Source of the DNA: a virus
Direction: 5' to 3' (one strand)
Virus record (IMG/VR): IMGVR_UViG_3300025626_000006
Location: 47,910 to 111,909 of that record
DNA: 64,000 bases
Shown: positions 26,913 to 27,105 of the stretch, one piece after another
How the letters are laid out: every line of letters starts with the position of its first letter
Position numbering within the stretch: position 1 is the stretch's first letter
The notes under the pieces: model-generated
The model's input: the letters and a program-made list of their open reading frames with translations, nothing else
What the model was told of the DNA's origin: nothing
Databases searched by the model: none
Made by a program: the position numbers and the translations under genes

Positions 26913-26985
26913 AGCGGAAGGGTGGCTACTGCCCCACCATCTATGTACTGGATGTACATCGAGTTTCTCTAAACTCTTCTTCCGC
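26913..26985 (-). ncRNA. Non-canonical tRNA-Gly(TCC)-like RNA, copy 2
   Basis: GCGGAAG-AA-GAGT-TTAGAGAA-ACTC-G-ATGTA-CATCCAG-TACAT-AGAT-GGTGG-GGCAGTAG-CCACC-CTTCCGC-T. Full cloverleaf without U8, U33, D-loop GG or T-loop TTC. Confidence 0.8.
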
Positions 26986-26990
26986 AGTTG

Positions 26991-27062
26991 AGCGAAGGGT
27001 TGGAACTGCCCCAACTTCTCCTATCTGGATGATAAGCGACTTTCTTTTAAGTCTTCCCTCGC
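26991..27062 (-). ncRNA. Non-canonical tRNA-Gly(TCC)-like RNA, copy 1
   Basis: GCGAGGG-AA-GACT-TAAAAGAA-AGTC-G-CTTAT-CATCCAG-ATAGG-AGAA-GTTGG-GGCAGTT-CCAAC-CCTTCGC-T. Confidence 0.8.
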
Positions 27063-27073
27063 AATTATGTTAC

Positions 27074-27105
27074 ACAATATACGAAATAAATTCCATACTA
27101 CCAAA
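27074..27105 (-). promoter_or_regulatory. Promoter directly upstream of the tRNA-Gly-like pair
   Basis: TTTG-N20-TATATTGT, ending 11 nt before the first cloverleaf. Confidence 0.6.

Follow-up and report, generated by a model that had tools for sequence, protein, structure and literature searches.

The tRNAs NP1-NP3 of Staphylococcus aureus and S. epidermidis act as glycine donors for FmhB, FemA and FemB. These non-proteogenic tRNAGly (NP-tRNAGly) are charged normally, lack the GG and T-Psi-C motifs and have an anticodon stem of 6 bp with a loop of 5 nt. The pairs A49-U65, U50-A64 and A51-U63 account for their weak binding to EF-Tu, and the preference of FmhB for them depends on determinants in the D- and T-arms (PMC7826273). 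Mom of phage Mu is a GNAT enzyme which attaches glycine to N6 of adenine in double-stranded DNA, with Gly-tRNAGly as the donor; it requires the glycine on a tRNAGly body, and Gly-tRNAAla fails (PMC13219725, Silva et al., Nat Commun 2026). In addition, a tRNA-Gly-like 'pseudo-tRNA' has been found embedded in a mom homologue in ssrA genomic islands of Dehalococcoides (McMurdie et al. 2011, PMC3146451). Here we describe a tandem pair of non-canonical tRNA-Gly-like RNAs, units A and B, in a viral DNA stretch of 64,000 nt (the window), which comprises positions 47910-111909 of the 111.9-kb IMG/VR record IMGVR_UViG_3300025626_000006. This source record (G000) has 34% G+C and a CheckV completeness of 63%. 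We consider it probable that the units are dedicated glycine carriers for phage Mom-type enzymes rather than for the ribosome.

Unit A occupies positions 26991-27062 on the minus strand (72 nt including U73, with G1 at 27062 and U73 at 26991) and unit B positions 26913-26985 on the same strand (73 nt including U73, with G1 at 26985 and U73 at 26913). A 5-nt spacer, CAACU (26986-26990, minus strand), separates U73 of the former from G1 of the latter. In unit A the acceptor stem GCGAGGG/CCUUCGC is joined by A8 A9, a 5-bp D stem (GACUU/AAGUC) with the D-loop AAAAGA, the anticodon arm CUUAU-CAUCCAG-AUAGG, the variable region AGAA and the T arm GUUGG-GGCAGUU-CCAAC. Unit B consists of the acceptor stem GCGGAAG/CUUCCGC, the D arm GAGUU-UAGAGA-AACUC, the anticodon arm AUGUA-CAUCCAG-UACAU, the variable region AGAU and the T arm GGUGG-GGCAGUAG-CCACC, which has an 8-nt T-loop. 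The first-pass annotation of this DNA had claimed two cloverleaves with differing stems and preserved pairing. Both are indeed present on the minus strand, where a four-arm cloverleaf with a 7-bp acceptor stem is the minimum-free-energy fold of either unit (z-scores of -3.4 for unit A and -5.2 for unit B), and all four helices are backed by covariation. The glycine identity elements named there, G1-C72, C2-G71, G3-C70 and U73, are found in both units together with the identical loop CAUCCAG, and so are the breaks with otherwise universal tRNA features, namely A8, A33, D-loops without GG and the two unusual T-loops. Neither unit encodes CCA; U73 is followed by C74, by A or U at position 75 and by A76.

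A reading of the plus strand was rejected: unit A folds no better there than shuffled sequences, the neighbouring tRNAs and open reading frames (ORFs) are all on the minus strand, and the G-U pairs fit the minus strand only. A pseudoknot between the T-loop and the 3' trailer (GCAGUU:AACUGC) was discarded as well, the trailer being variable in relatives (UCUAA, UCAAA, UCAAG). As had been foreseen, the standard finders miss the units. ARAGORN calls neither of them, nor the units in 30 related loci, and Rfam RF00005 (gathering cut-off of 29 bits) did not match the units when the threshold was relaxed to E<=10 for a 1.4-kb slice and to E<=1 for five relatives. Membership in another known RNA family was dropped after searches of Rfam with gathering and permissive thresholds, which returned nothing over the units.

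Two pattern scans of IMG/VR detected units in 52 contigs, and the covariance model R1, against which units A and B score 93.8 and 92.4 bits, finds one to three units per genome. Such a model-based search of viral contigs had been proposed beforehand, together with the question of whether homologues lose their pairing. They retain it: in 52 distinct homologues 99.9% of the cells are paired and compensatory changes are seen at 11 of the 22 pairs, compared to about 50% pairing in controls with slid partners. Two paralog types recur, type I with the T stem GUUGG/CCAAC, to which unit A belongs, and type II with GGUGG/CCACC, represented by unit B. A third pattern, in which the whole anticodon arm was left free, recovered essentially the same set, consisting of Gly-type units and two stray loci without a model match. 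NCC loops are therefore the only ones found on this scaffold, and its use with other anticodons was rejected. The unit-bearing contigs tested form one terminase clade of T4-like marine phages (terminase identity 65-100%), and the phage occurs in metagenomes labelled marine, seawater, estuary and freshwater. No copy was found in 185,579 prokaryote species genomes with an exact pattern, by which divergent copies could be missed, and blastn against 50,697 isolated phage records gave no copy of the units.

Across 57 distinct units, including both units of the window, G1-C72, C2-G71, G3-C70, U73, C35 and C36 are invariant, which is the complete identity set of the bacterial glycyl-tRNA synthetase (GlyRS). 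Invariance also applies to C74, A8, U13-A22, U14-A21, G19, A37, G53-C61 and C56. C32 and G38 are near-invariant, with a single exception, L016, where U32 is combined with A38 and thus covaries. The same is true for the elbow, with G54 G55 C56 R57 G58 in the T-loop and A16, A18 and A20 in the D-loop; this invariance is partly imposed by the search patterns, but the model-based matches agree with it, and so does the set recovered by the pattern that left the anticodon arm free. From the canonical core (U8, G18 G19, U33, U54 U55 C56, A58) only C56 is kept, along with R57 and G53-C61. Position 33 is free (A in 34 units, U in 21, C and G in one each) and position 34 is either U (47 units) or A (10 units). 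This conservation fits charging and not decoding, because the complete GlyRS identity set is fixed and the U-turn nucleotide 33 is not.

The units could alternatively be unusual but working decoding tRNAs, that is, phage tRNA-Gly(UCC/ACC) reading GGA or all GGN codons by superwobble, with an odd anticodon loop and elbow selected for escape from host tRNA-targeting nucleases or modification enzymes. We regard this as unlikely, though worth weighing in detail. The restriction of position 34 to U or A speaks for it, as C32 with U34, and also A34, is known to allow four-way reading of GGN, reportedly from work by Lustig and by Boren in 1993. It is opposed by U33, near-universal in elongator tRNAs, being A in 60% of the units and also C or G, by the pairable and covarying C32-G38, and by the replacement of G18G19, U54-Psi55 and A58 altogether.

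Judged from sequence comparison, the unit family descends from phage tRNA-Gly(UCC) via intermediates. One of these, at L037:5445-5520 (plus strand), has the acceptor, A8, the 5-bp D stem and the T stem of the family, yet it retains a GG D-loop, the canonical T-loop UUCAAAU and an encoded CCA. The D-loop AGUAGU is combined with the T-loop UGCGAUU at L015:4960-5035, and, on the same backbone, GAGAGA with GGCGGCU at L028:12563-12638. Since D-loop and T-loop changed together, the elbow appears preserved but rewired, not decayed. The suggestion of the first-pass annotation that the shared deviations reflect selection and not decay is thereby strengthened: new near-invariant loops have replaced the old elbow, and the intermediates link the D- and T-loops. 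As a separate observation, the anticodon loop of the L037 gene comprises 8 nt (CAUUCCAG), the architecture of +1 frameshift-suppressor tRNAs, and ARAGORN reports this gene as tRNA-??? with the anticodon 'tc'. The canonical tRNA-Gly(UCC) of T4-like phages takes the same position in the tRNA cluster as the units, and a 4-nt variable region, the GGUGG T stem and a UCA/UCU trailer are common to L050, L053 and the units. Unlike it, the units fail with RF00005 and ARAGORN and are devoid of U8, G18G19, a conserved U33, U54, U55 and A58. Descent from tRNA-Gly(UCC) is a point in favour of a decoding function, whereas L050 and L053, both of which keep a canonical Gly(UCC) plus a unit, argue against it.

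The search for Mom was performed with Mu Mom (L058) as query and with Pfam PF25680. Two to three Mom paralogs were detected in all ten unit-bearing genomes with at least 90% completeness (4/4 and 6/6), and several fragments likewise carry them. In G002, the closest relative of the source phage, the replication module contains three Mom paralogs, which score 119-161 bits and lie on either side of the gene for the family-B DNA polymerase (PolB); their coordinates in G002 are 132940-133554, 136099-136887 and 136874-137626. The Mom proteins of the clade share H58, Y59, R111, S124 and Y159 as invariant residues and mostly retain D149, but not R151 (numbering of PMC13219725). The nearest isolated outgroups, Flavobacterium phage immuto and Microcystis phage Mel-JY01, lack both Mom and units; their large terminase subunits (TerL) are about 58% identical. 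A TerL-based search for clade members without units returned close relatives and fragments only.

In G002, a gene of the DruA family (PF14236) adjoins the third Mom paralog (L085:11002-12192, minus strand, equal to G002 131002-132192), and genes for a 2OG-Fe(II) oxygenase and a UDP-galactopyranose mutase adjoin the Mom pair. The replication module of the clade thus contains a cluster of candidate DNA-modification genes. The direct neighbourhood of the DruA-family gene and the richness of the window in glycan and nucleotide-sugar genes could also point to a different role, in which the units donate glycine to another non-ribosomal acceptor, for example the DruA-like, acyltransferase-shaped protein or an unrecognised glycan-, lipid- or protein-modifying enzyme. 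We judge this very improbable. Aminoacyl-tRNA transferases of the Fem type (FemAB, PF02388), Acetyltransf_6 (PF13480) and the MprF C-domain are absent from the five genomes G000-G004 and were rejected as partners, DruA-type proteins are not known to use aminoacyl-tRNA, and Mom is the only partner with a proven dependence on Gly-tRNAGly.

A connection between Mom and tRNA-Gly-like RNAs is also seen outside of the clade. We sampled 49 diverse Mom loci together with as much as 3 kb of flanking DNA, a total of 264 kb; their identity to Mu Mom is 29-41%. A match to R1 is located 45-1800 nt from Mom in 12 of these 49 loci of other lineages, in 11 of the 12 cases on the Mom strand, while 82 stretches of control phage DNA (342 kb) gave no match at all (12/49 vs 0/82, Fisher p = 3e-6). 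The Mom-adjacent RNAs start with GCG (one with GCC), end with CGC-U (one with GGC-U) and carry NCC in the loop, and most have a non-canonical T-loop (UGCAACU, GGCAGCA, UGCAAAU, GGCAGAU and others). Only one of the 12 is called by ARAGORN, and sequence comparison sorts them into at least six groups. A link beyond shared ancestry is supported, because the adjacency recurs in independent, unrelated Mom lineages. A decoding function would leave unexplained why deformed tRNA-Gly genes lie against Mom in unrelated phages that have no tRNA cluster.

Several observations weigh against the units being carriers for Mom. The contig G000 itself (111.9 kb, 63% complete) contains no Mom gene anywhere. It is collinear with G002 over 2.6-109.6 kb and then ends, and the Mom genes of G002 are located at 133-138 kb, beyond this end; as the contig stops before the syntenic region, the presence of Mom in the source phage is deduced from synteny only. 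The fragment G047, which has a 95%-identical terminase, contains the Mom pair and does not carry the tRNA region. Within the clade, the units are not adjacent to the Mom genes but lie about 55-60 kb from them, and the co-occurrence of the two counts as a single phylogenetic event, because all unit contigs tested share one terminase clade. Units are not obligatory for Mom, since Polaribacter phage P12002L has Mom without units, and Mu Mom uses ordinary host tRNAGly (PMC13219725). With G49-C65, U/G50-A/C64 and U51-A63, the T stem of the units resembles the staphylococcal set for weak EF-Tu binding at 51-63 only, and it is common to the canonical phage tRNA-Gly(UCC) of L050. Other points of this kind are those which favour decoding. 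The units fill an otherwise empty Gly(UCC) slot in a tRNA set of mostly UNN anticodons, the GGA codon is in use (20.7 per 1000), and the canonical loop CUUCCAG is found in 21 of the 57 units. Most clusters have Gly(GCC) and no canonical Gly(UCC). The complete genomes contain no other strong tRNA-Gly-like match, which is weak support in that R1 did not report known canonical Gly(GCC) genes. A dual role, as Mom carrier and in decoding, is possible.

The units are preceded by a promoter of the Bacteroidetes type (27074-27105, minus strand), with the -33 element TTTG (27105-27102), a spacer of 20 nt and the -7 element TATATTGT (27081-27074). The pattern of Bacteroidetes sigma-A is TTTG at -33 and TAnnTTTG at -7. 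The distance from the promoter end to G1 of unit A is 11 nt, and a generic sigma-70 scan matches the same site (TTGGTA-17-TATATT). In relatives, the motif TTTG-N17-22-TAnnTT[TG][GT] precedes the first unit in 12 distinct loci at a distance of 9-12 nt (22 nt in one locus), compared with a background of 0.7% of random 70-mers of the window. The promoter predicted 11 nt upstream is thus borne out by its sequence, by the scan and by its retention among relatives.

Besides a non-ribosomal glycyl donor, the first-pass annotation had offered a GlyRS sponge or a decoy as options. The donor is the best supported of them and can now be given a likely transferase, Mom, and the other two are less supported. 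As a decoy or sponge, the units would mimic tRNA-Gly and soak up a defence directed at tRNAGly or Gly-tRNAGly, such as toxSAS enzymes like FaRel2, GNAT toxins of the TacT/AtaT2 type or anticodon nucleases, or they would titrate GlyRS. A strong dedicated promoter suits this role, and so does the invariance of the acceptor stem and of C35 C36 along with drift at positions irrelevant to such recognition. Moreover, FaRel2 recognises its targets tRNAGly and tRNAThr by their acceptor stem (PMC11245113), and a tRNA-Thr often adjoins the units in relatives. We nevertheless think a decoy quite unlikely: such a defence in the host is hypothetical, the link to Mom is predicted neither genome-wide in the clade nor by adjacency elsewhere, and a passive sponge would not require the strong conservation of the new elbow sequence.

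For units serving as glycine carriers of Mom we propose the following mechanism. Host RNA polymerase would transcribe the units and the downstream tRNA-Glu from the units' own Bacteroidetes-type promoter, and the transcripts would be matured like tRNAs by RNase P, 3' trimming and CCA addition. Charging with glycine by the host GlyRS is proposed on the strength of the Gly identity set, which the units keep in full. The remodelled elbow (D-loop NARAGA, T-loop GGCRGNN), the unconstrained position 33 and the pairable C32-G38 are predicted to make the units poor substrates for EF-Tu and the ribosome. The charged units would then provide the two to three phage GNAT enzymes of the Mom family with their own pool of activated glycine, sparing the Gly-tRNA needed for translation. 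By moving this glycine to N6 of adenine in phage DNA, Mom would generate N6-carbamoylmethyl-adenine and allow an escape from host nucleases. It is further conceivable, as a rather speculative extension, that the two paralog types are orthogonal carriers, each docking by its remodelled elbow onto a different Mom paralog. The phage would in this case modify its DNA through two or three channels, each with its own supply; these could differ in sequence specificity or in the final adduct, and all of them would be invisible to EF-Tu and the ribosome.

Both units lie inside a minus-strand cluster with six canonical tRNAs (Leu-UAA, Arg-UCU, Met, Ser-UGA, Ala-UGC and Glu-UUC), as detected by ARAGORN and Rfam. 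The order on the minus strand is tRNA-Ala, promoter, unit A, the 5-nt spacer, unit B, a 22-nt spacer and tRNA-Glu, and it is identical in G002 (locus L016), with Ala, promoter, unit I, unit II and Glu. The canonical tRNA-Ala(UGC) upstream of the promoter is located at 27126-27200 (minus strand; ARAGORN, Rfam 67.6 bits) and marks the cluster holding the unit pair; the canonical tRNA-Glu(UUC) follows 22 nt downstream of unit B at 26818-26890 (minus strand; ARAGORN, Rfam 62.2 bits). A terminator scan revealed no terminator-like site between unit B and tRNA-Glu. Co-transcription of tRNA-Glu with the units is probable, because both are on the same strand, only 22 nt apart and without such a site between them. 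Throughout the cluster (26818-27973, minus strand) every tRNA or tRNA-like gene has C74 directly after the discriminator, and the full CCA is encoded by tRNA-Arg alone. Directly after tRNA-Glu, again with no terminator-like site, genes for a Methyltransf_24 protein, a 91-aa ORF, an APS-kinase-like P-loop protein and a small cytidylyltransferase-like protein follow (25152-26805, minus strand). Farther along the window, a MoxR-type AAA ATPase (21280-22545) and a 729-aa protein without Pfam match are encoded.

In metatranscriptomes the locus is present only as contigs in four RNA runs, with a flat depth equal to that of the flanking genes, which permits no verdict on transcription, RNA ends or CCA. 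Contigs of two runs join 27792 to 27882 and skip 89 nt between tRNA-Leu and tRNA-Arg; hence some relatives lack this element of about 90 nt. One contig joins tRNA-Glu straight to tRNA-Ala (26890 to 27126), so that the unit pair is skipped.

Further RNA-like elements were noticed near the units of relatives. In many of them a conserved element of 65-90 nt is located ahead of the type II unit (L014:1243-1306; L039:1648-1738, L012:11653-11738 and L041:3877-3957, the latter three on the minus strand). It is characterised by a closing stem of 9-10 bp and the motifs UAAAG, GGAUAA.GCCGC and UUACCGG, and it folds only weakly better than shuffled sequences. It has no Rfam match and is absent from the window, whose two units are directly tandem. 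In L002:11269-11481 (minus strand) and the homologous L003-L011, L022, L023 and L031, a short ORF, about 70 aa long in L002, extends into unit I. Its TAA stop is placed inside the D-loop of this unit (GUUAAGAG), coding sequence and RNA overlap by about 18 nt, and a separate promoter is not visible in this subgroup. Beside the tRNA cluster of a 187-kb relative, a freshwater-1 RNA (Rfam RF02979, 74.3 bits, above the gathering cut-off) was identified at L034:74-135 (minus strand).

Our literature search yielded no paper on a phage-encoded dedicated tRNAGly for Mom. The ingredients, namely the tRNA dependence of Mom, the staphylococcal NP-tRNAs and the Dehalococcoides pseudo-tRNA, are already published. 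If the proposed function holds true, DNA hypermodification in abundant marine T4-like Bacteroidetes phages draws on an aminoacyl-carrier system which these phages supply themselves, built on a tRNA that evolution re-engineered so that it kept synthetase recognition and left translation. Mom chemistry would be extended from an enzyme borrowing a host tRNA to a dedicated module of enzyme and carrier, and 'pseudo-tRNA-Gly' genes that are missed or discarded by annotation pipelines would find an explanation. The invariant and variable positions would provide a natural map of the needs of GlyRS and Mom versus those of the ribosome, which might be useful for orthogonal tRNA or aminoacyl-transfer systems. 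The units would also represent the first viral counterpart of the staphylococcal NP-tRNAGly.

Among the described systems, the Dehalococcoides pseudo-tRNA and the Mom-adjacent viral RNAs share with the units a tRNA-Gly-like, mostly non-canonical cloverleaf which is missed by standard finders or called a pseudogene, and a physical or genomic linkage to Mom. They differ in their position inside mom or about 50-1800 nt away and in that many encode CCA, whereas the units of the clade are about 55-60 kb distant from Mom, do not encode CCA, reside in a tRNA cluster, have their own promoter and form two conserved paralog types. In comparison to Mu, the Mom proteins of the clade keep H58, Y59, R111, S124 and Y159, and R151 is not conserved in most of the paralogs. 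Mu has one Mom and borrows host tRNAGly, whereas the clade has two to three paralogs beside the DNA polymerase and its own non-canonical carrier RNAs; the product on clade DNA is a prediction.

The staphylococcal analogy drawn at first reading holds feature by feature. Both are extra tRNA-Gly(UCC) paralogs with the GlyRS identity set, both have lost G18G19 and T-Psi-C, an additional 32-38 pair is possible in both (giving a 6-bp anticodon stem and a 5-nt loop), and both have an A/U pair at 51-63. Discrimination is expected in the D and T arms, and a non-ribosomal glycyl transferase is served, in the phage by proposal, while translation is spared. Unlike the staphylococcal tRNAs, the phage units are viral, of independent origin from T4-type phage tRNA-Gly, and they possess the GGCRG T-loop, the NARAGA D-loop, A8 with U14-A21 and an unconstrained position 33. 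No Fem transferase exists in G000-G004, and the proposed acceptor is DNA adenine, not peptidoglycan. Because Fem transferases are absent and the RNAs derive from phage tRNA-Gly, the units are not members of the staphylococcal family, yet they appear to work like it.

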